DNA from: a virus
Strand: one strand, 5' to 3'
UHGV virus genome: UHGV-0375936
DNA: 64,000 nt
The notes beneath the pieces are model-generated. The model was given only the letters and a program-made list of their open reading frames with translations, was not told where the DNA came from and ran no database searches. Made by a program: the position numbers and the translations under genes. This document shows, in pieces, positions 6,598 through 47,190 of the stretch. Each line of letters starts with the position of its first letter. Within the stretch, counting starts at the first letter, position 1.

Positions 6598-7221
6598 ATG
6601 GCTACGCGTTTACCACTCCAGGTACCAGTCAACACCACGGGACTGTTCAAAGTAAAAACACCATTTACTTTGGCCGAGACGGTCATTTATACGGTAGAAG
6701 CGTCACGTACCTTCCCAGATTTAGTACGTCAGAATATTGACGTTTATAACTCGTATTACCAGCCAGTAGGGCTAGGACGTGAAGAATATTTAGCAGATGC
6801 GAATGTTAGTGCGTCGATTTTAACATTTAAATCTCGGGACGGTCAAGTTGTATACATACCTGACACCTACCTGGAATCATACCCAGGTTTATCCGGGATC
6901 ACGTATCAACGAAATGTGTTAGTAGTAGATTTGGCACTGGTACCGGATTACGTGAAAGTGTCGTCTATAACAAAAGACGTTTCAGATATTCTCACGCATA
7001 CACTAGGGATTGAGCCGAAAGTTGAAATTACAACGCTCGAGTATGAGGGGAAGGTAACGGAGGAACAGCACTTGCAGATGGAAGCGGCACGAAAAAATAA
7101 AATTCGTGAATCTATTCCATTAGGTGAGAAAGTTGCTGCGTTGACAGAAGAGAACAAAAAATTAAAAGAGTTAAACAACCAAATGTTAGAGATTCTTAAA
7201 GCTAACGGGTTAGTTAACTAA
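6598..7221 (+). CDS. hypothetical protein with C-terminal coiled coil
   Basis: 207-aa ORF 3 nt after previous stop; C-terminus KVAALTEENKKLKELNNQMLEILKANG. Confidence 0.6.
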   Translation: MATRLPLQVPVNTTGLFKVKTPFTLAETVIYTVEASRTFPDLVRQNIDVYNSYYQPVGLGREEYLADANVSASILTFKSRDGQVVYIPDTYLESYPGLSGITYQRNVLVVDLALVPDYVKVSSITKDVSDILTHTLGIEPKVEITTLEYEGKVTEEQHLQMEAARKNKIRESIPLGEKVAALTEENKKLKELNNQMLEILKANGLVN

Positions 7222-7228
7222 AAAGATT

Positions 7229-12709: not shown

Positions 12710-12895
12710 CTAATTCCGCCATTCGCATTCGCGTTGACGCCAAATTGAACCCCACGATAGTTTAATCAGATAAGATGAAACTACCCATAAAATCATCACC
12801 ACACAAAACATGACATAAAGAACCGCTAGAATGGACATGAAGCCAAACCCTGCCGCATCCACAATACGACGGAACCAATCAGTTTGCATAAACAA
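12710..12895 (-). CDS. small membrane protein
   Basis: 61-aa ORF with long hydrophobic core; overlaps the stop of the ATPase gene. Confidence 0.4.
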   Translation of the reverse strand: MFMQTDWFRRIVDAAGFGFMSILAVLYVMFCVVMILWVVSSYLIKLSWGSIWRQRECEWRN

Positions 12896-15383: not shown

Positions 15384-15461
15384 ACCCACCTCCATAAAGA
15401 CGGAGTGTGGTGTAAAAAGAAAAAAATAAAGAAAGGGAGAACCCGAAGGTTCTCCCTAACG

Positions 15462-30860: not shown

Positions 30861-30873
30861 GGAGAATTTTTTG

Positions 30874-33800: not shown

Positions 33801-35055
33801 TGCCAAAGCGTGTAAGCTGGGGATTGGTTCTCGTTCAGATTCTGCGGTTACGGATATCCCGTTAGTGATGGAGGAATCTGGGGAAACGGCGGTGGCGGCA
33901 ACGTTTAAGGATGTGTTGTTCAACGGCGAGGAAACCAACGCAGCGATACTCGACTTGATAGGCTGGGGTCCAAATAAAGACAAAATCTCTGCAAACCACG
34001 CGCCACGAGGTATGATTCGTTATCGTTACAACGTAAACACTCGGGTATTACGTTTAGCACTATCGTTCTCACAGTTCGGAACGACAACAGTTAAGCACCG
34101 CCAGTTGGAAATTGAATTTCCGTTTGATTTGGTGGATTACTTCACCGGTGACGGTGTAGGATTGTCGTTTAAAGAACTGTCTGCGAAATGCCGTGTAACG
34201 ATTAGCCACGCACTGATTGATCCGGTTACGACTAAAATCGATATTGATAAGTATCATTACCTACGCTCGTTATTTGAGTCGTATTTGGATGCATCTGTTG
34301 GTTATTTGGCTGATACCAAAGACGCCGACTTTAACCAGTCTGTGATTGACCCTGCGACTTATGAGATTAATCAGAAATACCGCGTTACCGAAAGCATTGC
34401 GCTGCCGACCGGTCAGGGAAGTGTTGCTGTTTCCCATGACGGTCAGTTACCTGCACAGTTCTTTGACCGTAAGCTGTCTCGCGGTGCTTTGATGGCCAAG
34501 AAAGGTGAACTTCATACTTCCTGGAACAATGAGTGGAGTACATCCAAAGCTGCCGCAAACCGGTATCGACATAAACTCATTCTGCGCTTTGCACAAGGTG
34601 CTGATAAACAACAGTACCGTGTTGCAAAAGTGACAGGAACGGTGAAGTGTAACTGGCCGGGCAAGGTGATTATCGGTGATGCTGGGAAGGACGCGTATGT
34701 ATCAGCTATCGATAGCGTGCCGTTTGCGCTTTCGACCAGCGCGGACACAGGTAAAGCAGTTACCCTTACGCCAAAGGATCTACGTGTAGGGCAGGACATT
34801 TATATTGTCTTAGAACCACCAGGCAATAATCCAGAAGGCTACGAGCTTAACTTTACCTGTTCGTTAGATGTCACTGACGAGAAAGGTGTCCGTCAAGACC
34901 AGCTCAATGCGCAGAGTTTCGAACTCCGTAGCGGCGAAAGTCAGTTCTTAATGGAGAAACGCAATCCGTACCACATCACGAGTAAAGCGTGGAAGTGGAT
35001 TCTGGCTGTACTGAAACGAGAACTTAACGGGAAGCAGTTAGGGGATCGTACTTAG
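30874..35055 (+). CDS. tail-fibre-like protein (paralog 2 of 4)
   Basis: 1394 aa from ATG after AAGGAGAA; shared N-terminal domain; repeat ATTAEKGVAKLKTGKGTETTGVAATPASL. Confidence 0.65.
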   Translation: MKAYPYDPRGTKAENHFLEERIIGSENNNDRVVILDHRPFFEDLVVRQPGSTTPLSRGVDYELQYQLTELDDSVAANVYCGVHLINPSIKGIVTFEGQMLGGTFYDPFVDILDELVKYLNNPVSADWLLLDGRPSLYPATPAATSWADLLNKKYLASAVHDIELKTDDANQLIKDKLAEVKALVTALGKEIEAFNYPAHIAETNPHKTTSAQINAHPVNLKTPDTFMAYGLKLKALTDELKAFRLPQSVIDTYISHWISSEVRGVFNCTVSGNRAQFRSKNGESEIIFANDGFTLKSNGSVVLAVGHLEGTGAGRYINWRAGKNTLRIESTGDALGMNKLTLNGNPLLTTTALMEYQQDPDAGSGGGGDPDDSKVYIEGRNGISFTGKGSRADPIVGTIDPTKATTAEKGVAKLKTGKGTETTGVAATPASLAPYSTDLSGYVAKTTMINGKPMNDGSRTITKADLGLGQANNTADVDKPLSTELNAALSGLADAGHHHDWSELGIYKASQSVYGIGRYATNQNGLVENRAVVPNILKELSARLDVVAAAIANAKEGSVTDFAAVKGAEWRFNSQGTAISVQDLKYFYLLNGTKADSTVTGSIDLQTTPMFNWFSPNNQIETTWPTGKVSAGKGINWTGIEEPPLMGFQSVPVGKTASQMGDQSVVTVLAKTRVRAHQSKLWVYAAGGGPVTVYINGIQAATGQSPLVAVHETSADVENYTVAVKAECSDTAKSAAVQFEIYDGDYPVYFSGPETRVELLQEFVTTHVGIRHYLYVNMLTSSLYSRTEPIQSVAVDPERGYIGYVDIVAGESYANKSVSFETTFDFGKSAEVSEHIDTRKAHGLSSVDWTLTDNPRFPLLNRAIAEPRTCIFRKTLTAGTGDVFHLVSRGLYTYAHNQNVKSSLQYVVIPEGATPYCWFTPFNPKENNAPTFEGSFVFDVDDVGGTQALTAAPDLVLCTSTQGSSVKRRYVRIDLTAKACKLGIGSRSDSAVTDIPLVMEESGETAVAATFKDVLFNGEETNAAILDLIGWGPNKDKISANHAPRGMIRYRYNVNTRVLRLALSFSQFGTTTVKHRQLEIEFPFDLVDYFTGDGVGLSFKELSAKCRVTISHALIDPVTTKIDIDKYHYLRSLFESYLDASVGYLADTKDADFNQSVIDPATYEINQKYRVTESIALPTGQGSVAVSHDGQLPAQFFDRKLSRGALMAKKGELHTSWNNEWSTSKAAANRYRHKLILRFAQGADKQQYRVAKVTGTVKCNWPGKVIIGDAGKDAYVSAIDSVPFALSTSADTGKAVTLTPKDLRVGQDIYIVLEPPGNNPEGYELNFTCSLDVTDEKGVRQDQLNAQSFELRSGESQFLMEKRNPYHITSKAWKWILAVLKRELNGKQLGDRT

Positions 35056-35093
35056 GACAGACTGCCTGCGGGCAGTTGTGTGTCCGTAGGTAA

Positions 35094-35130
35094 CCCCTCC
35101 CTGTAATGGGGAGGGGTATCCATTTTATTT
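35094..35130 (+). terminator. intergenic hairpin / possible attenuator
   Basis: CCCCTCCC-TGTAAT-GGGAGGGG hairpin with T-rich tail between fibre genes 2 and 3. Confidence 0.45.
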
Positions 35131-35149
35131 AAAAGTAGGAGTCTTTACG

Positions 35150-38100
35150 ATGCCGAGAGAAGACGCGGCGCAGTTTAACGGTACGCTAAGCACAACGACG
35201 TACCCTAACCGATTTAACGTGGTCATTCCGCCTGAAGGACCTTTTTATCGTATCGGATTAAAACTCACAGTAGCCGACGATACCGCGCCTAACGGACGTC
35301 GTACTCTGATTGAGGGGTTGGACTACTATTTAGGCTATTACTTTAAAGAACTCGCAGAAGCTGAACAAGATCAGATTTATGGCGGGTTTATGTTGCTTAC
35401 TGCAACAGAAATCGAATATGAGATTTTAGGGGTAGCACGTCAATACCGTGTACCGCAATCTGAAATCGGGAAGTTCTTAGTTCGTACTGACCTGAAAGAC
35501 CCACGTAACGTGGACTGGTCAGAGTTAATGGCGTATGCGCCAGTTATTCAACCTATCGATCCCCCTGCTAACTTAGAAGAAGCTATCCTGAGGGATGAGG
35601 TTGTTAAAGCGTTAAACGATATCCGTAAGAAAATCATTCAACGTTCAACAGAGTTAGATGCAGCGTTTACCGAAGTCACTAACCTGATTTACGAGAACGG
35701 TAAAAAGATTTTCGATGAAGAACTATACCAACACCACCTTAATCCTAACGCTCACCAGTATACGACCACTGATGTTGGTGCTCTTCCGGTTTTGGGACGT
35801 GCTGTTGACGCGACAAAAGCGTTTGGACTGACGATTGACCAGCTGGCTACGCTGATGGGTTCGGCGGGTATTGAGCAATCAGACGTTGATCAGTTAATAG
35901 GTGAAGCCCTCGGCACTGTTTACGGTCGTTGGGGCAGCACGAACGGTAACGAACTGACGTTTAAAACCGCAGGCGGACACATCATCAGTATCCGTGGTGA
36001 TAAGTGGTTAATTACCTCACCGCAACCGTTGGTGATTAAAGCAGACCAGGACAACAACGAATCGGGTTTGGCGGTTGAATTTAGTGCGGGGCTGAATACG
36101 CTTTGGGTACACTCTGGGACAGAACAAGATGTATTAGCGCCGGTTTACAACTCTGTGTATTTGGTTACACCAGAAATGGTGAACATGTACCTTACGTCTG
36201 TAACGTTACTTGAAGCAAATGCCTATTTCAAACCATCAGACACCGTAAAACCATACGGTACAGCGAAGCAGTCTAATCCGCTAACGTTGAACGCGAATAT
36301 CCCCACAGCAACCGAGTCGGTTTATGGGGTGTTTTCGATTACGAATATCGCAACCTCCGTAGCACTAGGCACTGCTATTTCCCAAAAGGCGGTGACCGAA
36401 TTAAAAGACCGGTTAGACTTGTACGTTGACGATGACTACACGGTTAACGGTAAAGGGTTTGTTAAGACAGGCGATAAAATGGTGTTAACCTTAACGAAAA
36501 CCGATTTCGGTATCGATAAGATGGATAACACCACGCCGATCGCTAAACCGGTAACAAAAGCGTTAGCGAATGTGCTGAAAAATAAAAGTTTGAAGGTGCA
36601 TACGCACACTACCGCCGATTTGGATAATGTCCCGATTGGTAGTGCGACCGTGGATGGTATCTTACAGCTGTGGGATGCGATTGATACCACGAATGATAAA
36701 GCCGTCACATCACGCCAAGGGTGGTTGTTCGCAAAAGAGATTAAGAAGGTCTCTGATAAACTGAATACCCTCTTGCCCGCATGGACAACGTCCGGGAGCA
36801 AATACACCAATAATTCGATATTGCCGATCTTGTCGATGGGTAATTACGAAGGTTATGGTAAAAACATGGATGCGCTCCAGATGGTTATAGGGGTACAACA
36901 AGGTAAGCTTTATGCTTTAATTAGTTCTAAATCTGCCCTTCCGGGAACTGAGGGTATTTATTACGCTGTTGCTGGGTTAAAAAACGACAAAAGTCTCGGT
37001 GAAATTTACAAAACAACTTTCCGTTATAAGCCGAAAGGGTTAGAGACGAATTATCCGGGGGTGGAACTAAAAGAAATTACCGTTACTGGCACCGAAGCAT
37101 TTATAGCGAAGGGCAGCGACGATAATTATTATTTAGTTAAACTGAACGGTTCAATGGATTACACCAAACATACCGATGTCAGGTTGGTAACTTTCTCAGA
37201 ATTTGTTTCAGAAACAACATGGGAATTTGTGCCGAATATGTTCATGGATCGTGTGGTCATAGCCGATAACGGCGTCTATGTTTTGCGTACGATGCTAATG
37301 GCCGATCTGAAAAACAATAGTCTGGTGGACTACATTAAGGATACTCCGCAACCTATGTTCCGTGTTGGGTTATTGCGACTTAATAAAACCGATCGGTTTG
37401 AACAGGTTGATTTAAGCTCTACACGAAAAATCGGTAAGTGTGCCGATTTGGTTGAACCTGGCGCGTTCGATGTAGATAATCCGAATACGAAGCGTCTTGC
37501 CTACTTCACTGCGGAAGGCAAAGCGTTGTGGACAGTGAATTTACAATTAACTAGAGGGGTGTCAAGATGGATAACGCCCGTTGTTAAGGACGGTCACTTG
37601 TTAACCGTCGGCGTGTCTGGCGTTTGTCTTGGTTTTTCTTCAACGAAAGGTACCACATTCGGGCCATGGAATGGTGCTTATCGTCTCGACCTATTAACCG
37701 GGGAGGTTGGGTTAGAGACAACTAACATCTTCCCAATCAAAATCGATACTACAGGTTGCTACTTAAAAGACGGAACAAAAATAGAGCTGAAATGGAAATG
37801 GGCTACTCGAAGTTCTGGCTATATGGCCGACAATAGAATCTGTGTCGGTGATATGGTTTATTCTTGCTGCTGTTCGACAGAAAAACAACTTGCACCGTCT
37901 CTCCATTACCAGAAACTCCCAGAAGGAGTTAGTTATCTGGACTATGTTAAGTTGAGTGCGGGGTATGAGGGGCAATCTACGTTTGAAAATCGGATAAACC
38001 CTGTGGTGGGTTCGGTGTGGAAACCGTCTATGACCTTCCCATTGTTCTTCCCAGGAACAAACAAAGTATGGCTTAAACATCAAAAAACGGCTTATTTCAT

Positions 38101-40336
38101 TGAAGCCGAATATGATAAAGATACGACTTATGGTTATCCTGGATACGGCGGGTTTGGACCAACATCCCGCCGTGTTGAAAAAAAAGCGAACGAATACGGC
38201 GTATTGACAAATATACCGCTGGTTGTTACGCCAGACATACCGAAAGGTCTACTAGATGGGGCTTACTTTATCGGTGCTGAAAGTAAACCATGTAAAGTTG
38301 TTTACGGTACCACTACGGTGGCTAGTGATCGGTTGTCTATCGATGCGGCAGAATGGGCGAAGTTGACTAATATTGTTCAGTCCAGCCAGTTCTCTGGGGC
38401 TTCTAACGGCAACGCCTATGAGCGGATTAGCGTAGCTAAGACCAAAAAGAACAACTACAGTTTGTCCTTTTGGGTGCTTGGTCAAACGATGTCTGGTGGT
38501 CCGCTTTGTATCGCGATAGTGAGTCTTATCTATAAAGACACTGACGGGGTAAATAAGTTTGCTTTTTACTTCTTTCAGGTAAAACCGACTATAACCAACG
38601 GGGTCATAAGGTTCGTTAGTTCGGAAGCGAGAATGATGACGTTCAGGGAAAAAGTGGCCAGTAACGCCATTAATCTCTCACCCACAGCTTTTAATGGTGA
38701 ACTTAAACAACGCTCCGGTCAAGTTTTCCTTTATTCGCAAGACGGACAAAAGTTCAGATTCTCAATACATAACCTGGTTGGCGGGAATCTTGTAGGATCA
38801 GAGATTTCTTTTGCTTTTGGGATAAACTTGACTAAAAAAGGAGAATGGTTTACCGGCGAAATTCATCGGGCGTGGGGCTATACGTATACGCTGAATAATA
38901 CATCTGAAGTCTATATACCCGATCTCTCGGGCATCGCGCTATTGACTTGTAACTCGGAAGATTTAAACGAGTTGTATCTCGGTGGCGAACAGTATAGAAT
39001 CTCTGATTTGTTTAACAAAAAATATACTGTTATCGATAAGATTATTATTGGCGGCGTACAAACACAGAGCGGTTGGAATTTCTATCTGACGGAGGAAACC
39101 GAGTTAAGTTTTGGAAATAAAAGATATACCGTTCCAAGATGGTCCGTTGATTTAAGCGATGAATTCCCGACTAATCACGCTAACCAGACATTCTACGTTT
39201 ATGCTGAAGTGGTCGGTTCTACTGCCCAATACCGCATCGGTTTAGAGCAGTTAGCTGATACCTCGTCGAGACTGTTTGTTGGGACAGTAACCACTGATTC
39301 GAACCGTATTACGGATATCAGTATCGATAAAGTAAAACGGTTAGGTCGTGTAAAAGAGCTGGAAAATCATGCCTCGGTTGTTGATCAGCACGATGTGGCG
39401 CAGGCGTTCGACAGGAAAACTGGTCCACTATTAACAGTGGTTAATAAACCCGTTAAAGCCATTACAGCATCTGCGAGCAAGGGTGCTGGGTATGTCGATG
39501 GCCAGAAATGGAATACGTTGTCCGGGATTGCAACGCGGCCCAGGTTGCCGGTACAGGAAACCTATTCAGGTTATAAAAGTATCAGCAGGGTGGCGTATGA
39601 GAACTGCGCTGACCAGTTCTGGCAGAAAGCGGTTGCTGCGAACGTTGCAGCGGCTACTGCTTCTGAGAACAAACAAGCAGCAACCGCGAACATGAAGTGG
39701 TTGGGTGCGTATACGAAACCGACTACCGGCGAGTATGCATATCTGGCATTGAGTCTGCGTGTTAAAGTACCTGGCGATCCTGGTACTACTAATCGTCGAC
39801 TGAAAATCAGGCTTGCGGCCCCGACAGGTATAACTCAAGTTCGTTACGGGCTAAATCAGTCTGGCGGTACGATGACTGAACAGACAGTAACGCTAACTGC
39901 TAACAGTTACCTGGAAAAAGAACACGCGGGATTTAAGCCAGCCGCCGAAGTCCGCCTTCATGCTACGTTTGTCATTCCAAAAAATGAATACGATAGCTAC
40001 CGGACCAAATTTGGTGCTGTTCAGCTGATTGACGTTGAGACGAACACTGTCATTAAACAGACAGATATCGACACACCGTTTATCGTGTACACCGCCACAG
40101 AGCAAGCGGCACAATCTGGTTTGGTGTATAAAGCGGTTAAGAGTCAGTTTCGTCAACTCCCGGCTCAACCTGTCGTCATTGTAACTGATGGACAGACAGG
40201 GACTACACCACCGGTGAAAACCGCATATTCTGACGGCACGTTAACGGTCTACGTGGCAACCACGTACGATGCGGTTAACCCAGCACAAACTCGCGATATC
40301 GATAAGCTCCAGTTCAATCTTATGTTTACATCTTAA
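35150..40336 (+). CDS. tail-fibre-like protein (paralog 3 of 4)
   Basis: 1728 aa; AGGAG RBS; shared N-terminal domain (PPEGPFYRIGL...GLDYYLGYY). Confidence 0.65.
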   Translation: MPREDAAQFNGTLSTTTYPNRFNVVIPPEGPFYRIGLKLTVADDTAPNGRRTLIEGLDYYLGYYFKELAEAEQDQIYGGFMLLTATEIEYEILGVARQYRVPQSEIGKFLVRTDLKDPRNVDWSELMAYAPVIQPIDPPANLEEAILRDEVVKALNDIRKKIIQRSTELDAAFTEVTNLIYENGKKIFDEELYQHHLNPNAHQYTTTDVGALPVLGRAVDATKAFGLTIDQLATLMGSAGIEQSDVDQLIGEALGTVYGRWGSTNGNELTFKTAGGHIISIRGDKWLITSPQPLVIKADQDNNESGLAVEFSAGLNTLWVHSGTEQDVLAPVYNSVYLVTPEMVNMYLTSVTLLEANAYFKPSDTVKPYGTAKQSNPLTLNANIPTATESVYGVFSITNIATSVALGTAISQKAVTELKDRLDLYVDDDYTVNGKGFVKTGDKMVLTLTKTDFGIDKMDNTTPIAKPVTKALANVLKNKSLKVHTHTTADLDNVPIGSATVDGILQLWDAIDTTNDKAVTSRQGWLFAKEIKKVSDKLNTLLPAWTTSGSKYTNNSILPILSMGNYEGYGKNMDALQMVIGVQQGKLYALISSKSALPGTEGIYYAVAGLKNDKSLGEIYKTTFRYKPKGLETNYPGVELKEITVTGTEAFIAKGSDDNYYLVKLNGSMDYTKHTDVRLVTFSEFVSETTWEFVPNMFMDRVVIADNGVYVLRTMLMADLKNNSLVDYIKDTPQPMFRVGLLRLNKTDRFEQVDLSSTRKIGKCADLVEPGAFDVDNPNTKRLAYFTAEGKALWTVNLQLTRGVSRWITPVVKDGHLLTVGVSGVCLGFSSTKGTTFGPWNGAYRLDLLTGEVGLETTNIFPIKIDTTGCYLKDGTKIELKWKWATRSSGYMADNRICVGDMVYSCCCSTEKQLAPSLHYQKLPEGVSYLDYVKLSAGYEGQSTFENRINPVVGSVWKPSMTFPLFFPGTNKVWLKHQKTAYFIEAEYDKDTTYGYPGYGGFGPTSRRVEKKANEYGVLTNIPLVVTPDIPKGLLDGAYFIGAESKPCKVVYGTTTVASDRLSIDAAEWAKLTNIVQSSQFSGASNGNAYERISVAKTKKNNYSLSFWVLGQTMSGGPLCIAIVSLIYKDTDGVNKFAFYFFQVKPTITNGVIRFVSSEARMMTFREKVASNAINLSPTAFNGELKQRSGQVFLYSQDGQKFRFSIHNLVGGNLVGSEISFAFGINLTKKGEWFTGEIHRAWGYTYTLNNTSEVYIPDLSGIALLTCNSEDLNELYLGGEQYRISDLFNKKYTVIDKIIIGGVQTQSGWNFYLTEETELSFGNKRYTVPRWSVDLSDEFPTNHANQTFYVYAEVVGSTAQYRIGLEQLADTSSRLFVGTVTTDSNRITDISIDKVKRLGRVKELENHASVVDQHDVAQAFDRKTGPLLTVVNKPVKAITASASKGAGYVDGQKWNTLSGIATRPRLPVQETYSGYKSISRVAYENCADQFWQKAVAANVAAATASENKQAATANMKWLGAYTKPTTGEYAYLALSLRVKVPGDPGTTNRRLKIRLAAPTGITQVRYGLNQSGGTMTEQTVTLTANSYLEKEHAGFKPAAEVRLHATFVIPKNEYDSYRTKFGAVQLIDVETNTVIKQTDIDTPFIVYTATEQAAQSGLVYKAVKSQFRQLPAQPVVIVTDGQTGTTPPVKTAYSDGTLTVYVATTYDAVNPAQTRDIDKLQFNLMFTS

Positions 40337-40376
40337 CGCCACGAGACAAGGACGTCTCGGATTAAGGAGAGTGGCC

Positions 40377-41576
40377 ATGGCCTCCATTGTATACCAATAC
40401 CCTTTAGATTTAACGGGAACCCTAACCTCTAACGCCGTGGAGCGTCAGGTTACGTTAGGTACAGGTAAAGTTAACCGTGCGTTTGCTTTTCCTGACGGTC
40501 CGTTTTATGCTGATACGTTCCGCTTGCGGGTTGCTAACCGCCCAGATGCGACGTATGAGCGCGGAACGGACTATGAGTTGATTTTTGCACACCCGGCTTA
40601 CGAGAAATTGACGAAGAACCGGGAAGTGGTAATGGCGGTTGTTGTAACGAACACCGCGATTCCGACCGATATCACGGTATCGGCGCAAGTAGTCGGGGGC
40701 CCGCAGTCGGCAAACGTGACTGCGATAGAACAGGCGATTGCTGAGTTGAATCTCGATAATCGAACTGTTGGCTTTAAAGACTTGCGAAATGTTCCTGATA
40801 CATTTCCTTCGGCACCAACGTATAAAGACGTCGGCGATATTTACGGCTTCGAATACATCATTACAGTGCTCGCCGGTATTAAAGATGCGATAACTGCTGG
40901 CGATGCTGTACAGCTTGAGAACATCAAAGCGATTCTCGAAAGCCTGAAAAACGATTTCCTGGACGCGCTGAACGCGCACATTAACGCCACGGGTAACGTC
41001 CACCATCTGGATATTCACCAGGTTAACGGGTTAACAGAAACGGAGATCCGTGCACTGATCCGTGACGTACAGTCTGCCATCGATGCAACCATTACTGATA
41101 TTAATGCGTTGAAGAAAGCAGACGAAGCGTTAGGAAAACGTATTGATGCTGTTGTCAAATCTCTGGAAGCGTGGAACGACCAACTTAACGTCGTTGCACA
41201 AAACTACCAGAAAATGGCACTGGCAATGGCGAACCTAAACTCGTTAGTGTTACAGTTACAGAAAAATATCAACGATCTGAGCACCAAACTCAACCAAGCG
41301 ATTCAACGTATTGCTGCGTTAGAACAGCGGGGTAATGAGTCCGATCAGAAAATTGATAAACTGCAACAAAACCTGGATGCGCTTAAACAGCAGGTTAATA
41401 ATAACACGAACGCAATCAGTCAGGCGAATCAGAACCTACAAAACCATATTGCGGCAGACAACCCACACACAGGCTATCTCCACAAGAAATACGGTGGTGT
41501 GGTTCAGGCTCCAGTGCACGTTAACGCTAACTTGACGTCCCGTGATGACGTTCAGGCAGAAGCGGGTACGAAATAA
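40377..41576 (+). CDS. tail-fibre-like protein with coiled coil (paralog 4 of 4)
   Basis: ATG after AAGGAG; N-terminus FPDGPFYADTFRL...GTDYELIF shares the fibre N-domain; long heptad-like C-terminal region. Confidence 0.6.
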   Translation: MASIVYQYPLDLTGTLTSNAVERQVTLGTGKVNRAFAFPDGPFYADTFRLRVANRPDATYERGTDYELIFAHPAYEKLTKNREVVMAVVVTNTAIPTDITVSAQVVGGPQSANVTAIEQAIAELNLDNRTVGFKDLRNVPDTFPSAPTYKDVGDIYGFEYIITVLAGIKDAITAGDAVQLENIKAILESLKNDFLDALNAHINATGNVHHLDIHQVNGLTETEIRALIRDVQSAIDATITDINALKKADEALGKRIDAVVKSLEAWNDQLNVVAQNYQKMALAMANLNSLVLQLQKNINDLSTKLNQAIQRIAALEQRGNESDQKIDKLQQNLDALKQQVNNNTNAISQANQNLQNHIAADNPHTGYLHKKYGGVVQAPVHVNANLTSRDDVQAEAGTK

Positions 41577-41643
41577 CTTTATTACAGGAGGAACTATGCT
41601 TATGGGCGTAGTCCTCCATTCTTTTTTATTTTAAGGATACGTG

Positions 41644-42039
41644 ATGGCGATCAGTGTTAAAAATGTACGTGACCGAATCACCAACGTAGAGAACCAAATG
41701 GCAACTGGCCCACGTGTTGATCCGCAAGTTGCGTCGAAAGCACATAATGCCGCCGACACTTTTTCGGGTTGGACGCCAAGTCGGTTAGACTGCGGGGGAA
41801 GTTGCAGCTGGACGTGCTCAAACGGCTGTACGCACGGCTGTACGAGTTGTTCGGGCACCTGTACGTCAGTATGTGTAGGTAGCTGCTCCTCTGCGTGCGG
41901 TAACCAGTGTACTGGATGTAGTTCAACATGTTCCGGCGGCTGTTCAGGTTGCAGTGGGACCTGTGGTGGTGCTTGCTCGGGCCGTTGTTCTACGGGTTGT
42001 TCTGGTGCTTGCTCTGGTGGCTGTTCTGGCCCAACCTAA
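41644..42039 (+). CDS. Cys-rich peptide A, candidate RiPP precursor
   Basis: AAGGA RBS; about 50-aa leader then about 80-aa core with about 21 Cys, mostly C-x3-C (CGGSCSWTCSNGCTHGC...); track ORF starts 3 nt earlier at GTG. Confidence 0.6.
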   Translation: MAISVKNVRDRITNVENQMATGPRVDPQVASKAHNAADTFSGWTPSRLDCGGSCSWTCSNGCTHGCTSCSGTCTSVCVGSCSSACGNQCTGCSSTCSGGCSGCSGTCGGACSGRCSTGCSGACSGGCSGPT

Positions 42040-42049
42040 GAGGTGAAAA

Positions 42050-42448
42050 ATGGCAATTGGATTACCTGCGCTACAAGCGCGGCTAAATAACATTGACAAC
42101 ACTGCATTGAAGAATACGGGTGCAGTGCAAAACTATATTCGTGGGAAAGCGACGAACAACGCAGACTTATTCGGTGGACAAGCTCGCAACCATTACGACT
42201 GTGGTGGGAGCTGTAGCTGGACCTGTTCGAGCTGTTCTGGTGGTTGTACAGGGAACGCATCAGGCGGCTGTGGTTCTTCGTGTTCTGCAAACTGTGTATC
42301 AGGTTGCAGCGCAGGCTGTAGCGGATGTTCGAATACATGTTCTGGTGGCTGCTCAGGAAGCTGTACGGGGAGTTGTTCTAACTCGTGTGTGGGAAACTGT
42401 TCTTCAGGCTGCTCGGGCAGTTGTTCTGGTGGGTGTTCTGGGAGGTAA
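42050..42448 (+). CDS. Cys-rich peptide B, candidate RiPP precursor
   Basis: GAGGTG RBS, 10 nt after peptide A stop; core DCGGSCSWTCSSCSGGC... with about 20 Cys. Confidence 0.6.
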   Translation: MAIGLPALQARLNNIDNTALKNTGAVQNYIRGKATNNADLFGGQARNHYDCGGSCSWTCSSCSGGCTGNASGGCGSSCSANCVSGCSAGCSGCSNTCSGGCSGSCTGSCSNSCVGNCSSGCSGSCSGGCSGR

Positions 42449-42450
42449 TT

Positions 42451-42657
42451 GTGATTAGCCTTAAGAACCTTCGTGATCGATTAGTAACAGCGGAAGGGTA
42501 TATTACGACCGCTAACGCAAACAACTATATTGCAAACCAGGGCACCGTGTCTTCAACCAATAACCTTGCCGGTTTACCTTTAAGCCATTATAACTGTAAC
42601 GGCGGATGTAGCTGGTCGTGTAGCGGTAGCTGTAGTAAAGGCGCGGGGGGAAGGTAA
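42451..42657 (+). CDS. short Cys-rich peptide C, candidate RiPP precursor
   Basis: GTG start 5 nt after GGAGG, 2 nt after peptide B stop; leader VISLKNLRDRL resembles peptide A; core NCNGGCSWSCSGSCSKG. Confidence 0.5.
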   Translation: MISLKNLRDRLVTAEGYITTANANNYIANQGTVSSTNNLAGLPLSHYNCNGGCSWSCSGSCSKGAGGR

Positions 42658-42806
42658 CTAAGCCCTCCAGTGGTAGTATGTCTATTACGCAATAACCGAG
42701 TTAATCGTACGGGTTTACTACTGAGTTTCAAGTTACCGGTAGGCAATGGTGCGGTGGTTTCTATACCCTGAATGTCCGTTTGACCGTGAAATAATTGGAG
42801 CAATCA

Positions 42807-43694
42807 ATGAAGAATGATTTACATTTAGCATACAAAACAATTTTCAATCATCCACTTCACATTTCTTCCCCTGATTCCGTACGTGCACACTTAGCAGATG
42901 AAGTTCGTCTGCTGACTCAGTTGCCGGGCGAATGGCCTAAAGTACGCGGACGTTTCTTTACCGATCGTAAAAACTATCGTGTAGAAAATACGTTTAAGAT
43001 TCGTGATCTGACGGCAGAAAGTGTGGTGGTCTTTACCGGTGACTCCGAGTTGCGTGGTAAACTGGTTGCGGGTAAATATTTCTTTAGTGACGGGATTTTG
43101 AATAACTCCGTAGATATGGAATTGTTCTTTACCCCATTTGAAGAAATGGGCGCAAAACCGGTTGCCCGTCGTTGGTGGTCACCGGATTACTTAGGCTCGT
43201 TCCCGTATTTCTTTACCCTGGTAACACCAGAAACGAAGAACTATTTCGATACGGAATCGTATATCGAAATTGAAGGGTACGAAGCGTTAGGGATTAATTG
43301 CTTAGCGGATTTAATGGCGTATAGCTATAAGTTCGTGTGGGATCGTGAACGTTCCGTGTGGGTTGCCCTGACGGATGAACATGAAATCACAAAACGCATC
43401 CGTAAGCCTTGGATGCAGCATTTGATTCAAACGCGTATTGGCGAGCATCCGTCAACAGAAGCGGATCTGGCAAAACTCCTTAGTTTCTTAATGACGAAAG
43501 TCACGTTAACTGACGAAGAGAAAGCAGCAGTGTCGGCGGTGTTGGACCGTAACGTAACGTTAGCGGATTTAGAACGTTTAAATGTCCGTTATAAAGACCT
43601 TAACCGTATTTTGGAAGCGTATAACTCTCCATTCTTGTTAACCCCTGGTGCTAACGTAGACGACGATCCTTTGTTCGCCATTGATTATATTTAA
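42807..43694 (+). CDS. hypothetical protein, candidate RiPP accessory
   Basis: ATG at 42807 with GGAG RBS; 296 aa between precursors and radical SAM genes; no motif recognised. Confidence 0.55.
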   Translation: MKNDLHLAYKTIFNHPLHISSPDSVRAHLADEVRLLTQLPGEWPKVRGRFFTDRKNYRVENTFKIRDLTAESVVVFTGDSELRGKLVAGKYFFSDGILNNSVDMELFFTPFEEMGAKPVARRWWSPDYLGSFPYFFTLVTPETKNYFDTESYIEIEGYEALGINCLADLMAYSYKFVWDRERSVWVALTDEHEITKRIRKPWMQHLIQTRIGEHPSTEADLAKLLSFLMTKVTLTDEEKAAVSAVLDRNVTLADLERLNVRYKDLNRILEAYNSPFLLTPGANVDDDPLFAIDYI

Positions 43695-43715
43695 AAACGA
43701 CCGGAGTCACCTGCA

Positions 43716-44639
43716 ATGACAACCAATGCAGAACCAAGGTTATCGAATCGTTTATACGATAAACCCACCGTATTGTCCGTAGTCGCTACGTCCAAGTGTA
43801 ACCTGGATTGTAGCTTCTGCGGTGGAGCCTATTACATGAATCGTGAAGATTCTCCGCGAGAGTTTCAACGTGAGCGAATTTTGGAAGCGCTGGAAGCTAA
43901 TCCAACCATTACCGAAATTCAGTGGACGGGTGGTGAGCCATTACTGGCAACCCGTAAAATTGAGGCGTTTGTTGACGAATTAAAAGTGATTCGTCCAGAA
44001 CTCAAACACCAGTTGTATACCAATGGCTTAAAGATGCGTAAATCGCATCTCCCGTTGCTAAAACAGTTTGACAATGTCTACGTTAGCATCGATGGGTTTA
44101 AGTCGTCTGAGCGCCCGTTTATGCGCTTTATTGACGAAGGCTGTTACGAAGCACTGGAAACGATCTACGAGCTGGATAATGTCCAGACTTGGGGTGTCCT
44201 GACACGGGACCGTTTAGGGGACAAACGCTGGCACGAAGATATTATTCAGCTGCACAGCGCGATTTACCATTACGGTTTCCGTGCAATGACGTTACTCTTA
44301 GATGCGAAAATGCCAAAACCTTTATCGCCTGACCACGTCATGAACTTTATTTACGGCTACTATCAGGTTCAGGATAACATTGAACGACTGAATGTAGTAA
44401 ATAGTCGTGAATGCGGCTTTACAGTAAGTAAAGTGTTTGAAGAAGGGTGTAACGTTTGCAGCGAAAGTCTTTGGATTAATGCAGACGGCGGTGAGCACCA
44501 ACTCCAGAATGCACCTAACGTTCTGGAATCGGGATGTAACCAACTGGCCTTCTCTATCGGTGTAGAGGCGTACGAATATATTCGTCGCGTAGTGATGGCA
44601 GGGCGTAATAGAGGGGCGGCAAATGAGTCAAGTAAATGA
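43716..44639 (+). CDS. radical SAM enzyme
   Basis: CNLDCSFC (CxxxCxxC) near N-terminus, GGEPLL SAM-binding motif, four more Cys in the C-terminal third. Confidence 0.8.
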   Translation: MTTNAEPRLSNRLYDKPTVLSVVATSKCNLDCSFCGGAYYMNREDSPREFQRERILEALEANPTITEIQWTGGEPLLATRKIEAFVDELKVIRPELKHQLYTNGLKMRKSHLPLLKQFDNVYVSIDGFKSSERPFMRFIDEGCYEALETIYELDNVQTWGVLTRDRLGDKRWHEDIIQLHSAIYHYGFRAMTLLLDAKMPKPLSPDHVMNFIYGYYQVQDNIERLNVVNSRECGFTVSKVFEEGCNVCSESLWINADGGEHQLQNAPNVLESGCNQLAFSIGVEAYEYIRRVVMAGRNRGAANESSK

Positions 44640-45945
44640 ATTCCCTAAGCAGTTAACGTATCAGATCGTAACCAACCTTTCGTGTAACCTGGACTGCGAA
44701 TATTGTTACGAACGTAAGTACCCGCGTAACAACAAAGCGGCGGATATTGTTGATTTCTTACACGCCTGTTTTGAACGTGATAAAAACGAACCGAATGTTG
44801 AAGTTATTATCGACATTATCGGTGGTGAGCCGTTCATGCAGCCTAAACTGCTGCTGGCTGCGTTTGAAACCGCTGAGCAGTTGTGTAAAGAACACAACCG
44901 ACCGTTTATGTTTAGTATTTCCACGAACGGAACGCTGTTAGATCGTCCGTTGAACCGTGAGATCGTAGAACGTTGGAAAGATAAACTTTCGGTTGGGGTT
45001 TCGATTGACGGCTTACCTGAGTCCCATGACCGTTATCGTATCTTCACAACAACACGCCAGGGTTCTTACGAAGCCGCAGTACGTGGCTATAACTACTTAA
45101 AAGAGGTTGGCATTGCAGAGCTCGGCGTAAAAGCAACCTTTACGTTAGAAACGCTGCCGTTCTATGCTGCGGGGATGAAGTCATTAATTGACATTACTGG
45201 CGGTGGGACAATTTCTGGAAACGTAACTTTCGAAGACGTTATGCCGCGTAGCATGGCGACATCAATCGCTTTACAGATGATGGATGTGATCGATTATTGG
45301 GTTGAGAAAGGATTACACACCAACCCACGTAATATCTTATCGCACATCATTCCAGAAGGGTTGGATTTCGATACGATTTGGGAACCGAACTGGCGTGACC
45401 AGTTACTGTATAATGACACCGTACGGTTGAACCCAGAACGTTTACGTCCGTTCTGTGGGACGTTAACGCACATGACGTGCTTAGGATTTGACCGTAAGAT
45501 CTTTGGCTGTAACCGCTTTATGTCAACGGTAACGTCGCGTTCTGCGGTGTTTGAGTTGGTAGGTCGGGAATTCGTCAGTCTGGACAACGGTAAGCTGCTA
45601 GAAGAGATTCAAACGCAATATACCAACTACCCAGAGACCTGTTTAGGTTGTCCGATGAAACACGCTTGTGGTAGCTGTGCTGCGGCTTCTTACGAGAACG
45701 GGGAAGGAACGTTAGAAGACCGTAAGGCGTATCACGCTGAACGACGTCAGTGCGGCTGGACGACAGCGAAACTGATGGTGGCGGAATACTGGAAACAGAA
45801 GATGGGTACGACGTCAGCAAAAGCGTTCCATGACACGAGCATGTGTTATTGCCCACGCTGTGTTCGTGAACGTGCCCAAAAGGAAAAATTATTAAGAGAA
45901 GCCAAAGATGAAACCAATTCTGATCAACAATATTACGAAGCGTAG
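44623..45945 (+). CDS. radical SAM enzyme with SPASM-like domain
   Basis: CNLDCEYC, IGGEPF, STNGTLL, and C-terminal CLGCPMKHACGSCAA Cys cluster; 17-nt overlap with upstream radical SAM gene. Confidence 0.8.
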   Translation: MSQVNEFPKQLTYQIVTNLSCNLDCEYCYERKYPRNNKAADIVDFLHACFERDKNEPNVEVIIDIIGGEPFMQPKLLLAAFETAEQLCKEHNRPFMFSISTNGTLLDRPLNREIVERWKDKLSVGVSIDGLPESHDRYRIFTTTRQGSYEAAVRGYNYLKEVGIAELGVKATFTLETLPFYAAGMKSLIDITGGGTISGNVTFEDVMPRSMATSIALQMMDVIDYWVEKGLHTNPRNILSHIIPEGLDFDTIWEPNWRDQLLYNDTVRLNPERLRPFCGTLTHMTCLGFDRKIFGCNRFMSTVTSRSAVFELVGREFVSLDNGKLLEEIQTQYTNYPETCLGCPMKHACGSCAAASYENGEGTLEDRKAYHAERRQCGWTTAKLMVAEYWKQKMGTTSAKAFHDTSMCYCPRCVRERAQKEKLLREAKDETNSDQQYYEA

Positions 45946-46480
45946 AATTCGACTTCTGGATAAGTTTCTGGAAAACAGTAAGCTATTCGGTTGTTATGTG
46001 GTGATTAACGGTGAAGATTTTACCGATGACGTAAAACGCTTACTGATTCGTCACGGCGTGACTGTAATCATCCCAATGTACTGCACCGAACTTACTGACC
46101 TGTCGGTCGCGGAAATTGAAAAACGTAACCCAGGGTTTGAAGAACGGGTATTGGATTTCCCACGTCACAAAATTGCGTTTCTACGCCGCTCTTTAAGCGA
46201 ACCCAGCGCAGAATCTATCACTGTGTTGGCATTGTCCTTCCCAGGCATTACTATCTTCGCAACACGTAACCCGAACTCACCGATTGATGGGTTTTACGAT
46301 GAGCGGGAGAAATTTAATAGCGTGATTTTTCCTGAACTAACGCCAGAAGAATGTCAGGGTATCCGTATCGATTGGGAATCGGACTTCGACACAAGATTCC
46401 GTCATATCGATTTTGAACTGTTAATCGAATTAGGGTTGATTAAAGGAGACGATGAATGTCTGCTACTGGTGAAGGCTTAA
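45908..46480 (+). CDS. hypothetical protein
   Basis: 190-aa ORF overlapping the end of the radical SAM gene. Confidence 0.5.
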   Translation: MKPILINNITKRRIRLLDKFLENSKLFGCYVVINGEDFTDDVKRLLIRHGVTVIIPMYCTELTDLSVAEIEKRNPGFEERVLDFPRHKIAFLRRSLSEPSAESITVLALSFPGITIFATRNPNSPIDGFYDEREKFNSVIFPELTPEECQGIRIDWESDFDTRFRHIDFELLIELGLIKGDDECLLLVKA

Positions 46481-47127
46481 CGAAAGAAGAAATCCGTCGC
46501 CGTTATTTTGCGCACGATTTACCGATTGACCGTCATGGTAACTACATGGAGAAAATCGGTAGCGAAGATCACGGCCGTACAGGGTTTTGTGCATTACTGC
46601 ACTATAAGTTGATTGATGGGATGTCTGATCGCGAAGCATTGGAGCAAATGCGTAACTACGACATGTCTGAAATCGAAGCACGGTTTACGCTACAGAAAGC
46701 GAAAGACTTTGTTAACGACACGCTGGGAATTGACCTGGAAGAGATTCGTACGGGGTTACGTTCCACCGTACGGTACATCTTTACCGATGTTCAGAAAATT
46801 CTAAGCGCTTTGGAATTCCGTTATCAGGATGCGCGCTATGCTGAGATTCAGGTAGGTGATTTCACTTTCCAGGCAGATGAGAAGTCACAGGTAGCACTGA
46901 GTCGTTATATCCAGTCAGAAACTGCGCCAGCGTATTGGTTAACGGCTAACAACACCCGTATCGAACCGTTTACGTTAGAACAGTGCAAGACGTTGCTGGC
47001 AGCAATCGTTGAGCGTGATCAAAGACTACACCACGCAATGTCTGAGCAGAAAAGAGAAGTCAGGGCTTGGGCTGAAGCACGTGATTACGATTCGATAAAA
47101 GCGTTTGCGTTAGAGCAAGGGCTGTAA
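46456..47127 (+). CDS. hypothetical protein
   Basis: 223-aa ORF overlapping previous gene; last gene before bidirectional terminator. Confidence 0.5.
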   Translation: MSATGEGLTKEEIRRRYFAHDLPIDRHGNYMEKIGSEDHGRTGFCALLHYKLIDGMSDREALEQMRNYDMSEIEARFTLQKAKDFVNDTLGIDLEEIRTGLRSTVRYIFTDVQKILSALEFRYQDARYAEIQVGDFTFQADEKSQVALSRYIQSETAPAYWLTANNTRIEPFTLEQCKTLLAAIVERDQRLHHAMSEQKREVRAWAEARDYDSIKAFALEQGL

Positions 47128-47134: not shown

Positions 47135-47190
47135 CGAAAAAAACAGTATACCTACCTCCCGTAATAGGAGGTAGGTATTTTTATTTTTTC
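47135..47190. terminator. bidirectional Rho-independent terminator
   Basis: 12-bp perfect stem ATACCTACCTCC-CGTAATA-GGAGGTAGGTAT flanked by A-run and T-run. Confidence 0.7.

Follow-up and report, generated by a model that had tools for sequence, protein, structure and literature searches.

What does a phage make from three consecutive genes whose products are crowded with Cys? The window, i.e., the whole 64,000-nucleotide stretch of viral DNA analysed here, carries three such genes, A, B and C, which the initial annotation had read as precursors of sactipeptide-like products. Reading of the open reading frames returned exactly the tandem genes, coordinates and Cys counts (21, 20 and 4) that it gave, together with the gaps of 10 nt (A to B) and 2 nt (B to C) and a ribosome-binding site for each gene, now read as Shine-Dalgarno (SD)-like sites conserved in the phages compared. 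We therefore take the following layout as given.

41633..41637, + strand: SD-like site AAGGA of gene A, read from the sequence; an equivalent is present in 8 of 8 phages compared
41644..42039, + strand: gene A, ATG to TAA, 131 aa, 21 Cys; phrog_6085 at 1.6e-40
42040..42045, + strand: SD-like site GAGGTG of gene B, read from the sequence and by cross-phage comparison
42050..42448, + strand: gene B, ATG to TAA, 132 aa, 20 Cys; phrog_6085 at 1.4e-39
42440..42445, + strand: SD-like site GGGAGG of gene C, within the 3' end of gene B
42451..42657, + strand: gene C, GTG to TAA, 68 aa, 4 Cys (positions 49, 53, 57 and 61)

Sequence organization of A, B and C

The gene A product begins with a 49-aa Cys-free N-terminal part, followed by the junction CGGSCSWTCS and then an 82-aa C-[ST]-G-x array, and the gene B product follows the same plan, with an N-terminal part of 50 aa, the same junction sequence (CGGSCSWTCS) and an array that again measures 82 aa. 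Gene C has an A-like N-terminal part and no array beyond its junction knot CNGGCSWSCSGSC (4 Cys); its GTG start codon is replaced by ATG at the same place in one relative (L008), and its protein is matched exactly in 43 contigs of public assemblies. The junction motifs RLDCGGSCSWTCS, HYDCGGSCSWTCS and HYNCNGGCSWSCS are found in window proteins, and A, B and C share the junction consensus NAxxLxG....Y-C-x-G-x-C-S-W-x-C; the N-terminal starts ISVKNVRDRI and ISLKNLRDRL are common to A and C. The earlier claims of a common junction and of a likeness between the A and C starts are thus borne out, and alignment of A with B further shows the two to be paralogous, at 45% identity (E = 4e-17).

The Cys residues are, as had been described, spaced mostly with a period of four by Ser/Gly/Thr-rich residues: in A and B of eight phages, the interval C-x3-C occurs 263 times, C-x2-C 49 times and C-x7-C 5 times (17 C-x3-C intervals in A and 16 in B of the window by direct count), and the consensus unit of both arrays is C-[ST]-G-[SGT]. 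The spacing count reveals no CC or CxC motif in the A/B arrays, and by composition the two cores contain no Asp or Glu, are extremely rich in Cys, Gly and Ser and are nearly free of Lys and Arg. Such Cys patterning greatly exceeds what chance would give, and no other array of at least six closely spaced Cys was found in the six frames of the 64-kb window. A Pfam search of A, B and C gave zero matches, hence no recognised tail-fibre domain, and a PHROG search gave 6085 (function not known) as the sole match, whereas scores against the CXXX-repeat model TIGR04114 fall slightly under its cut-off of 20 bits (19.4 for B and 14.4 for A). An AlphaFold2 model of B from a 20-sequence alignment depicts the array as coil at a pLDDT of 42.9 and is uninformative.

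A, B and C are genes under purifying selection

Deposited annotations place other genes at this stretch: the ORF at 42120-42458, overlapping gene B, corresponds to the wrong frame that was annotated as gp100 in SPN3US, and the Proteus phage 7 record has an ORF on the minus strand at the A/B/C stretch. These records would suit a reading in which the A, B and C frames are open by chance, in DNA of high GC content and low complexity, and one of the overlapping GenBank-annotated frames is the true gene. However, the deposited annotations contradict one another, and the substitution pattern speaks for the A, B and C frames. The three genes are conserved in 62 records of SPN3US-like jumbo phages from five genera. 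In a comparison of the window phage with seven phages of other genera, pS in these frames is 0.74-0.97 versus a pN of 0.10-0.36, i.e., synonymous change is saturated and non-synonymous change low, indicating purifying selection, and third-position changes are 2-3 times commoner than first- or second-position changes. Every Cys column and an SD site before each gene are kept in all phages compared, and the Cys counts of 21, 20 and 4 are fixed in 8 phages from 5 genera; gene C is the most conserved of the three, with a pN of 0.10 versus SPN3US. On the evidence of these alignments A, B and C are genuine genes; the alternative frames and strand are ruled out by the substitution pattern, and the chance-frame reading is effectively refuted, retaining almost no credibility. 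A DNA microsatellite or tandem repeat as the origin of the arrays was also rejected, as TRF detects only 12-nt repeats of at most 2.7 copies and all Ser and Gly codons are used.

A and B commonly escape gene callers or are called in a wrong frame. When the N-terminal part and junction served as a profile query, the matches were nearly all C-type peptides, as the genes A and B are seldom called. Most deposited genomes, and a 15-billion-protein collection, lack A and B or give them in a wrong frame, so that proteomic and structural studies of SPN3US-like phages have used incomplete databases.

Operon context of the genes

A, B and C are located directly 3' of four virion baseplate/fibre paralogues, inside a late structural operon that includes the following further features.

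40374..41576, + strand: fibre-like virion protein, homologue of SPN3US gp167; phrog_2163 at 6e-104
42807..43694, + strand: accessory protein, 295 aa, core module member; its start MKNDLHLAY is kept in relatives
43716..44639, + strand: short radical SAM (rSAM) enzyme, 307 aa; Pfam Radical_SAM at 6e-14
44623..45945, + strand: radical SAM/SPASM enzyme, 440 aa; Pfam Radical_SAM at 3.4e-15
45908..46480, + strand: 190-aa protein with no assigned function; phrog_7988 at 2e-55
46456..47127, + strand: DUF4376 protein, 223 aa, last gene of the operon; PF14301 at 5e-11, phrog_8169 at 3.9e-89
47148..47178, no strand assigned: bidirectional intrinsic-terminator-like hairpin at the operon end, with a 12-13-bp stem and T runs on both strands

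In the gp167 homologue a coiled coil comes after the N-terminal phrog_2163 domain, and three giant proteins upstream share this domain at their N-termini; the longest ORF of the homologue starts at 40269, and the ATG at 40374 (MASIVYQYPLD) is conserved in relatives. The operon runs from the fibre paralogues to the 47148-47178 terminator without an internal terminator, and its downstream genes overlap: the SPASM gene overlaps the short rSAM gene by 17 nt, and the gene for the 190-aa protein overlaps the SPASM gene by 38 nt, which suggests translational coupling. An attenuator or terminator between gene C and the enzyme genes was considered as a control of stoichiometry and rejected, as neither a terminator nor a stable hairpin is present between gene C and the accessory gene (z = 0.66). 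No fold or domain could be recognised in the accessory protein, and it has no NCBIfam match. The 190-aa protein, conserved in SPN3US-like loci and missing from prophage modules, is lineage-specific and outside the core module described below. The DUF4376 protein has weaker matches to phrog_1807 (tail fiber) and phrog_2837 (tail), and a DUF4376 gene is also found downstream of the rSAM pair in a metagenomic phage (L094). Domain and profile searches of the operon (40269-47127) found no peptidase, exporter, immunity gene or RRE.

The published proteome of purified SPN3US virions includes gp167 (44.8 kDa) at a coverage of 70% (PMC5694885 Suppl. Table 1). The virion contains gp167-170, gp167 being the only listed product of the stretch that includes the A/B/C region, and gp161-166, which include the rSAM enzymes and the accessory protein, were not found in it, as expected for enzymes (PMC5694885). 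A, B and C could not be detected in that proteome because they were absent from the search database; moreover, cross-linked cores nearly free of Lys and Arg would be invisible to that analysis. Predicted peptides of the SPN3US versions of A, B and C include VQIVEANMATGPR, IDAQVASK, LNTIDANALK, NTTNVQNYIR and LVTAEGYITTAQANNYIANQGTVSTTNNLAGLPLSHYNCNGGCSWSCSGSCSR. SPN3US also has an established amber-mutant system (PMC5105663).

Two radical SAM enzymes are encoded downstream

The 307-aa enzyme carries CNLDCSFC at residues 28-35 and, in alignment, three conserved C-terminal Cys (Cys245, Cys248 and Cys274) reminiscent of an auxiliary cluster site of the twitch type. The 440-aa enzyme carries CNLDCEYC (a CX3CX2C motif) at residues 21-28; its Cys residues invariant in 15 homologues are C21/25/28 and the eight SPASM residues C278/286/296/340/343/349/352/377. 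A gene for an rSAM enzyme with a complete SPASM domain thus lies about 2 kb from the candidate substrate genes in one operon. The best profiles of the 440-aa enzyme are PapB NF047865 (116.8 bits, cut-off 340) and TIGR04115 (114.7 bits, cut-off 350), the latter with a full-length alignment of residues 10-371 to model positions 3-345 of 359; its best PDB match is CteB (5WGG, E = 5.8e-14), limited to the rSAM core (residues 19-180). The HxsB match of the 440-aa enzyme (75.3 bits, cut-off 370) and the HxsC match of the 307-aa enzyme (38.9 bits, cut-off 268) are weaker. The 440-aa enzyme misses the trusted cut-offs of all named maturase families, so that its chemistry is not transferable by homology. 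Both enzymes lack an N-terminal RRE extension: their cluster motifs begin at residue 21 (440-aa) or 28 (307-aa), and their profile alignments to TIGR03974 begin at model position 105.

The nearest characterised relatives of the SPASM enzyme, PapB, QhpD and SCIFF/CteB, all make Cys thioethers, and by this analogy the chemistry on the Cys arrays is probably thioether formation. As the A and B cores have no Asp or Glu, the acceptor rule of PapB cannot apply and the acceptor must differ. The enzyme genes lie 1-2 kb downstream in the same operon, and A, B and C are, we infer, almost certainly the substrates of the two rSAM enzymes.

Related modules place the Cys array on tail fibres

Among 80 IMG/VR viral loci picked by rSAM similarity alone, a Cys array adjoins the enzyme in 79; this co-occurrence, seen also in every module examined, argues for an enzyme-substrate pair. 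PHROG 6085, the family of A, B and C, is matched by 24 of the 38 non-redundant array proteins. The module has four parts, a Cys array, an accessory protein of about 250-300 aa, a short rSAM and a SPASM rSAM, and homologues of all four, with the gene order preserved, occur in phages that otherwise differ widely: a P2-like prophage of Campylobacter pinnipediorum (L010), where the module is placed between the tail-fibre and sheath genes, a GpJ-type prophage of Deferribacter (L012) and six metagenomic phages (L093, L094, L095, L102, L103 and L104). Homologues of the short rSAM are present in every related module, and in L103 both rSAM enzymes are fused into one 686-aa protein.

In seven of these phages (L010, L012, L093, L095, L102, L103 and L104), the array forms the C-terminus of a tail-fibre protein. 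The array protein contains PF12571 (Phage_tail_fib) in L010 (1.8e-40), where the fibre is encoded at 6070-7224, and in L095 (24.2 bits), PTR repeats are present in those of L012 and L093, and tail-fibre PHROGs match other array proteins. The window junction motif, NAxxLxG....Y.C.G.CSW.C, is kept in two fused cases, L012 and L093, and the fibre-like protein of L012 aligns with B from its residue 171, equivalent to B residue 21, onward. The pattern 'NAxxLxG...S.Y' may be a common tail-fibre motif; the junction likeness here is drawn only from the L012/L093 alignment.

The same query also returned true TIGR04115 members among the IMG/VR phage loci (L106, 400 bits; L159, 458 bits). As the neighbours of the canonical TIGR04115 loci L106 and L108 carry no annotation, the link to tails is shown only for the clade closest to that of the window. 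In Clostridia MAGs (L018 and L019), related maturases adjoin small stand-alone CXXX peptides (72-94 aa). A contig scan with the generic pattern CNL[DR]CxYC, which returned mostly unrelated SPASM enzymes, also revealed giant CXXX proteins in Margulisiibacteriota/Termititenax.

A model of A, B and C as cross-linked fibre components, and its alternatives

We consider it somewhat probable, from gene context and homology, that A, B and C are small fibre-associated structural proteins of an SPN3US-like jumbo phage, with arrays that are cross-linked by the rSAM pair, and not precursors of released peptides; phages would then probably cross-link part of their host-recognition apparatus enzymatically. 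The approximately 50-aa N-terminal part, which the initial annotation took for a cleaved leader, is probably no such thing: because the homologous array ends tail-fibre proteins in other phages, the "leader" would be fibre sequence that stays attached. Each protein would have a short helical N-terminal part and a junction, to which A and B add an 82-residue C-[S/T]-G-x rod. A, B and C would be made late, from the operon of baseplate/fibre paralogues, and modified before or during assembly by the next three gene products, of which the 295-aa accessory protein would probably act as an adaptor or chaperone presenting the array. The most likely chemistry would be hydrogen abstraction from a small residue nearby, at a backbone or side-chain carbon that a Cys sulfur would then capture; with about 20 repeats per chain, this could yield a ladder of thioether rings, a thin, rigid segment resistant to proteases and redox changes, which in relatives would constitute the distal end of the tail fibre. 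Likewise, we infer that A, B and C are located in the virion, retain their N-terminal parts and co-assemble. That A and B have cores of equal length, and that the Cys counts do not vary, would be more in keeping with a structural ruler than with a bioactive peptide. A difficulty for the cross-linking model is that radical SAM enzymes are oxygen-sensitive and phages of the SPN3US type are grown under aerobic conditions. A broader version, to which we give somewhat less than even credence, is that tailed phages with several unrelated kinds of tail terminate some fibres in a novel fibrous element, a (C-S/T-G-x)n rod made into a thioether ladder by the rSAM pair, and that jumbo phages have split this rod onto A, B and C, which would co-assemble via the N-terminal helix and the Trp-containing junction. 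If true, this would provide the first RiPP-type, rSAM-installed covalent modification of a virus structural protein and give a role to the orphan CXXX-repeat rSAM system.

A classical RiPP pathway, in which leaders guide the rSAM enzymes and are cut off, and the poly-thioether (sacti- or ranthipeptide-like) cores act as diffusible effectors, for example antimicrobials against competitors or host modulators, would explain why the N-terminal part and core, with their conserved junction, look like a leader/core design, why several precursor genes, each with its own ribosome-binding site, precede the enzymes, and why a SPASM maturase akin to PapB, CteB and TIGR04115 is present; the stand-alone CXXX peptides beside related maturases in the two Clostridia MAGs also speak for it. 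The proposal of sactipeptide precursors was partly right, in that the genes belong with the rSAM/SPASM enzymes downstream, but the peptidase, exporter, immunity gene and RRE searched for are missing, the setting is a late operon of structural genes, tail-fibre proteins of other phages carry the same array and junction as a covalent part, neither Cys count nor core length varies across five genera, and peptide C is almost coreless; we judge this pathway unlikely. A little less likely still, in our estimate, is a purely transient role, in which the array proteins and the rSAM/accessory set would act like chaperones in trimerising or attaching fibres of the gp167-170 type and be absent from the virion. 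In the P2-like prophage the accessory and rSAM genes sit where P2 has its fibre-assembly gene, a DUF4376 gene with weak tail-fibre and tail PHROG matches closes the window operon, and gp161-166 are missing from SPN3US virions, all in keeping with such a role; yet one or two dedicated rSAM enzymes and a strict 20-Cys array would be costly for a discarded part, the array of the fused versions is the fibre's own C-terminus, and the module contains no protease gene or recognisable protease domain.

The remaining alternative is that the Cys rods are left unmodified, held by disulfides or metal ions in the style of metallothionein, the beetle antifreeze beta-helix or the metal-lined T4 tip, and that the rSAM enzymes act elsewhere. 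Their extreme richness in Cys, Gly and Ser would suit this, and disulfides are possible in extracellular virion proteins and metal-containing fibre tips exist. The pairing of array and rSAM in nearly all viral loci and in every module examined, and the lack of the CC and CxC motifs of metallothioneins, argue against it, and we hold it to be quite improbable.

Cross-linking of the arrays and their presence on the virion, as in the main model, would, if true, extend rSAM peptide chemistry beyond secreted natural products to the building of virus hardware and account for the widespread orphan CXXX-repeat rSAM pair (TIGR04114/TIGR04115 relatives). It would also offer protein engineering a new thin, chemically robust protein rod and add an unrecognised host-recognition component to SPN3US-like jumbo phages, which are under development against Salmonella, E. 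coli, Erwinia and Cronobacter. No paper found in a literature search connects radical SAM enzymes and Cys arrays with tail fibres.

Comparison with known systems

Like the SCIFF maturase CteB and the sactipeptide synthases AlbA and SkfB, the window enzymes combine rSAM and SPASM/twitch architecture and would use Cys as sulfur donor, but the substrate has 20 Cys in a period-4 array versus 3-6 Cys in a hairpin, and unlike CteB the enzymes have no N-terminal RRE domain; neither an RRE-recognised cleavable leader nor a leader peptidase/exporter, features of sactipeptide systems, was found at the window operon. The His-Xaa-Ser system (HxsA, HxsB/HxsC and HxsD), which is defined by genomics alone, similarly has a short-period repeat substrate, an rSAM pair (one SPASM-like and one shorter) and a further protein, whereas its repeat is H-x-S rather than C-S-G-x and all scores are far below the cut-offs. 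PapB joins the Cys sulfur to the Asp beta-carbon in repeated CX3D motifs (freyrasin, a ranthipeptide), and its substrate PapA is a leader-containing secreted RiPP. PapB is the best-scoring characterised family for the 440-aa enzyme and shares with the proposed system the action of one enzyme on many repeated Cys motifs per substrate, but the window cores have no Cys-X3-Asp/Glu acceptor motifs and stand in a structural context. The promiscuity of PapB has been described (PMC12373016).

On the structural side, the arrangement resembles P2 H/G, Mu S/U and T4 gp37/gp38/gp57 in that the genes lie directly 3' of fibre genes and the arrays form the distal end of fibres. We know of no fibre tip that is a Cys array and of no fibre assembly factor that is an rSAM enzyme, and a literature search found neither. 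Metallothioneins differ in that A and B have almost only C-x3-C spacing, with some C-x2-C, and dedicated rSAM partners. The closest parallel is the CXXX-repeat system (TIGR04114/TIGR04115), for which, to our knowledge, there is comparative genomics only and no characterised product; Haft and Basu reportedly introduced many of the TIGRFAMs models concerned in 2011. That system, too, pairs a tandem C-x-x-x substrate with an adjacent rSAM/SPASM enzyme, whereas the clade of the window adds a second, short rSAM and an accessory protein of about 250-300 aa and carries its arrays on, or beside, tail-fibre proteins.

Three tandem genes encode cysteine arrays

The initial annotation had placed three tandem open reading frames, A, B and C, at 41644-42657, and these are borne out exactly, with cysteine counts and intergenic gaps matching. 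They lie within the following arrangement.

Features of the array operon and its upstream flank
26538-41576 (+): four consecutive proteins of 1440, 1394, 1728 and 435 aa
41644-42657: genes A, B and C
Gene A: 131 aa, 21 Cys; 49-aa Cys-free N-terminus and 82-aa core
Gene B: 132 aa, 20 Cys; 50-aa Cys-free N-terminus and 82-aa core
Gene C: 68 aa, 4 Cys; GTG start, junction only
42807-43694: accessory protein, 295 aa
43716-44639: short radical SAM (rSAM) enzyme, 307 aa
44623-45945: rSAM/SPASM enzyme, 440 aa; overlaps the short rSAM gene by 17 nt (44623-44639)
190-aa protein; overlaps the SPASM rSAM gene by 38 nt (45908-45945)
DUF4376 protein; overlaps the 190-aa protein gene by 25 nt (46456-46480)
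47148-47178: strong bidirectional terminator closing the transcription unit

The gaps are 10 nt between A and B and 2 nt between B and C, and a Shine-Dalgarno-like site lies 5-6 nt upstream of every start. A is paralogous to B (45% identity, E = 4e-17), and all three proteins hit PHROG 6085, a functionally uncharacterised family. The triplet is found in 62 records of Salmonella, Escherichia, Proteus, Erwinia and Cronobacter phages. Across eight phages from five genera, A has 21 cysteines, B 20-23 and C 4, and each gene is preceded by a Shine-Dalgarno site in all eight. Codon alignments of A, B and C against the window give a saturated pS of 0.74-0.97 versus a pN of 0.10-0.36; third-position changes are two to three times as frequent as those at first and second positions, and all cysteine columns are kept. 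On this sequence evidence, A, B and C are genuine genes. Since the arrays use the full set of Ser and Gly codons and TRF detects only 12-nt repeats of at most 2.7 copies in their DNA, the array is maintained at the protein level. No further array of this kind occurs in any frame of the window.

Deposited annotations of the A-C stretch are mutually contradictory. The sole CDS annotated over gene B in the reference genome of the Salmonella jumbo phage SPN3US, gp100 (YP_009153460.1 / AEP83999.1; 6074-6409 of the SPN3US locus, L002), is the +1 frame of gene B, corresponding to window 42120-42458 (+). Different frames or the opposite strand are annotated in Proteus phage 7, Asesino, Phobos, pSal-SNUABM-04 and pEa_SNUABM_9. 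A collection of 15 billion proteins contains C and the wrong-frame ORF but no exact copy of A or B, whether from SPN3US or from the window phage. None of the three proteins could have been seen in the published SPN3US virion proteomes. Ahead of its GTG, the reading frame of gene C continues without a stop for another 66 nt and reaches into the end of gene B (42385-42657 (+)), hence the N-terminally extended or fused versions of C among public gene calls (for example P0181, 121 aa, and P0247, 172 aa).

The window belongs to an SPN3US-type jumbo phage, the region sharing ~70% DNA identity with Seoulvirus genomes. L097, a 225-kb IMG/VR contig (IMGVR_UViG_3300029126_000001), carries an rSAM gene that matches that of the window at 100% identity. 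An exact copy of the C peptide is found on 43 contigs, none longer than 224 kb, some in assemblies labelled Salmonella enterica serovar Chester, and near-identical cluster relatives occur in serovar Dublin and Braenderup and Shigella flexneri assemblies; the jumbo phage therefore travels inside bacterial isolate assemblies. Elsewhere in the window, an SbcC-like nuclease subunit at 12879-15395 (-) (phrog_77, 1.3e-91) is the counterpart of gp186, an essential SPN3US protein, and is unrelated to the cysteine arrays.

The operon joins tail-fibre candidates to two radical SAM enzymes

The four proteins upstream of A share an N-terminal phrog_2163 domain and form a paralogue family homologous to SPN3US gp170, gp169, gp168 and gp167, all found in purified virions (PMC5694885) and considered baseplate or tail-fibre candidates (PMC5694885; PMC5105663). 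The shortest paralogue stops soon after its coiled coil, immediately upstream of A, B and C. Neither a terminator nor a stable hairpin was found directly after gene C. The last four operon genes overlap in succession, which suggests translational coupling of the enzyme part. Domain and fold searches matched the accessory protein to nothing known.

The 440-aa enzyme carries a CX3CX2C motif at residues 21-28 and eight further cysteines, all kept in 15 homologues with identities as low as 27%; by sequence, these eight are the full SPASM set. Among NCBIfam models it scores best against PapB, at 116.8 bits, and, over the full length, against TIGR04115, the family of CXXX-repeat maturases, at 114.7 bits; both values are far under the curated cut-offs. 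Of the solved structures, the closest is that of CteB, the SCIFF thioether synthase (5WGG, E = 5.8e-14). In the 307-aa enzyme, CX3CX2C lies at residues 28-35, and three conserved cysteines towards the C-terminus look like a twitch-like site. In another phage locus (L103, 4131-6191), residues 15-235 of a single 686-aa protein correspond to the short rSAM and residues 289-668 to the SPASM rSAM, a "Rosetta stone" fusion showing that the two enzymes cooperate.

Related arrays terminate tail fibres in other phages

Distant homologues of the SPASM rSAM (27-40% identity) were traced back to their contigs, two of which have the following gene orders.

Gene order in two prophages
L010, Campylobacter pinnipediorum P2-like prophage: baseplate J, Tail_P2_I, tail fibre (Pfam Phage_tail_fib, 1.8e-40), 250-aa protein, SPASM rSAM, short rSAM, DUF1353, sheath, tube
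L012, Deferribacter abyssi prophage: GpJ-type central fibre, three proteins, 250-aa protein, short rSAM, SPASM rSAM

The fibre proteins of both loci terminate in the same kind of cysteine array (...YITMGCNGCSGSCSGSCSSGCTACSGCSGSCSG... at the L010 terminus; ...KATNADQLGGQAGSYYRCSDCSWTCSSSCTGSC..., with 29 Cys, in L012). Across these phages, the array, accessory, short rSAM and SPASM rSAM proteins are each mutually homologous, and the same arrangement lies beside tail genes in five further loci (L094, L095, L102, L103 and L104). L093 (5306-8134) is a variant with three consecutive rSAM genes downstream of the array-bearing fibre. Residue for residue, L012 and L093 reproduce the junction motif that A, B and C have in common, and the L012 protein is alignable by BLASTP to B from B residue 21 on. 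In a looser variant, L096, acidic arrays (1866-3392 and 6804-6962; CSDCSDCSDYCSDDHC, CDDCSDSYYCSYCDSWDC) adjoin two related SPASM-type rSAMs, and the array-bearing fibre has KLATARKI-type repeats; neither the accessory protein nor the short rSAM was found there.

A proposed fibre-tip modification module

The rSAM pair and the array are probably enzymes and substrate of one module, which phages would carry at the distal end of the tail fibre. In SPN3US-like phages, its substrate would be split over three small chains encoded directly downstream of fibre paralogues. The initial annotation had read the Cys-free N-termini as leaders in a sactipeptide-like system. The BLASTP alignment covers most of this supposed leader; because the N-terminal part matches sequence retained in fused fibres, and domain and profile searches of the operon found no protease, transporter or RRE, a cleaved leader of ~50 aa is unlikely. 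The ~50 N-terminal residues of A, B and C would be the counterpart of that retained fibre sequence.

The closest characterised relatives, PapB, QhpD and CteB, all join the sulfur of a Cys to a carbon in a different residue. The substrate array offers ~20 cysteines with small neighbours only, in units of C-[ST]-G-[SGT], and contains no Asp or Glu. By analogy, our most economical guess, with enzyme homology too distant for a reaction to be transferred, is that the rSAM pair would convert the array to a ladder of thioether rings. Fixed cysteine counts and the identical 82-residue length of the two window cores suggest that A and B are a length-constrained structural element, possibly paired with each other. 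Because C, the most conserved of the three, retains just the Trp-containing four-Cys junction, we speculate that the junction may be a separate assembly or cross-link unit. AlphaFold gave no confident model for the array. There is a real chance, somewhat below even, that the system represents a novel class of modification of virion proteins.

Relation to the CXXX-repeat family

Scanning IMG/VR with the rSAM alignment yielded 80 loci, in 79 of which a cysteine array adjoins the enzyme. PHROG 6085 is matched by 24 of the 38 non-redundant array proteins, and the sole functional labels among the other matches are tail fibre, tail collar fibre and tail protein. The tail link covers the branch of the window; neighbouring genes in the canonical TIGR04115 branch are unannotated. 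In two Margulisiibacteriota (Candidatus Termititenax) MAGs, a TIGR04115-like rSAM (271.9 bits) adjoins giant CXXX-repeat proteins that are 668-672 aa long and contain 112-122 Cys (L013, 3081-5087; L014, 3387-5405).

Literature searches of incomplete coverage returned no paper characterising the TIGR04114/TIGR04115 pairing, or tying a CXXX/rSAM pairing to phage tail fibres or SPN3US-like phages. Some viral enzymes from the scan are bona fide TIGR04115 members (400-458 bits), which makes the window system a diverged branch of a family that has been catalogued but not characterised. CXXX repeats are already catalogued in NCBIfam (TIGR04114/TIGR04115) as paired with an rSAM/SPASM maturase; what appears to be new is the link of this known pairing to phage tail fibres.
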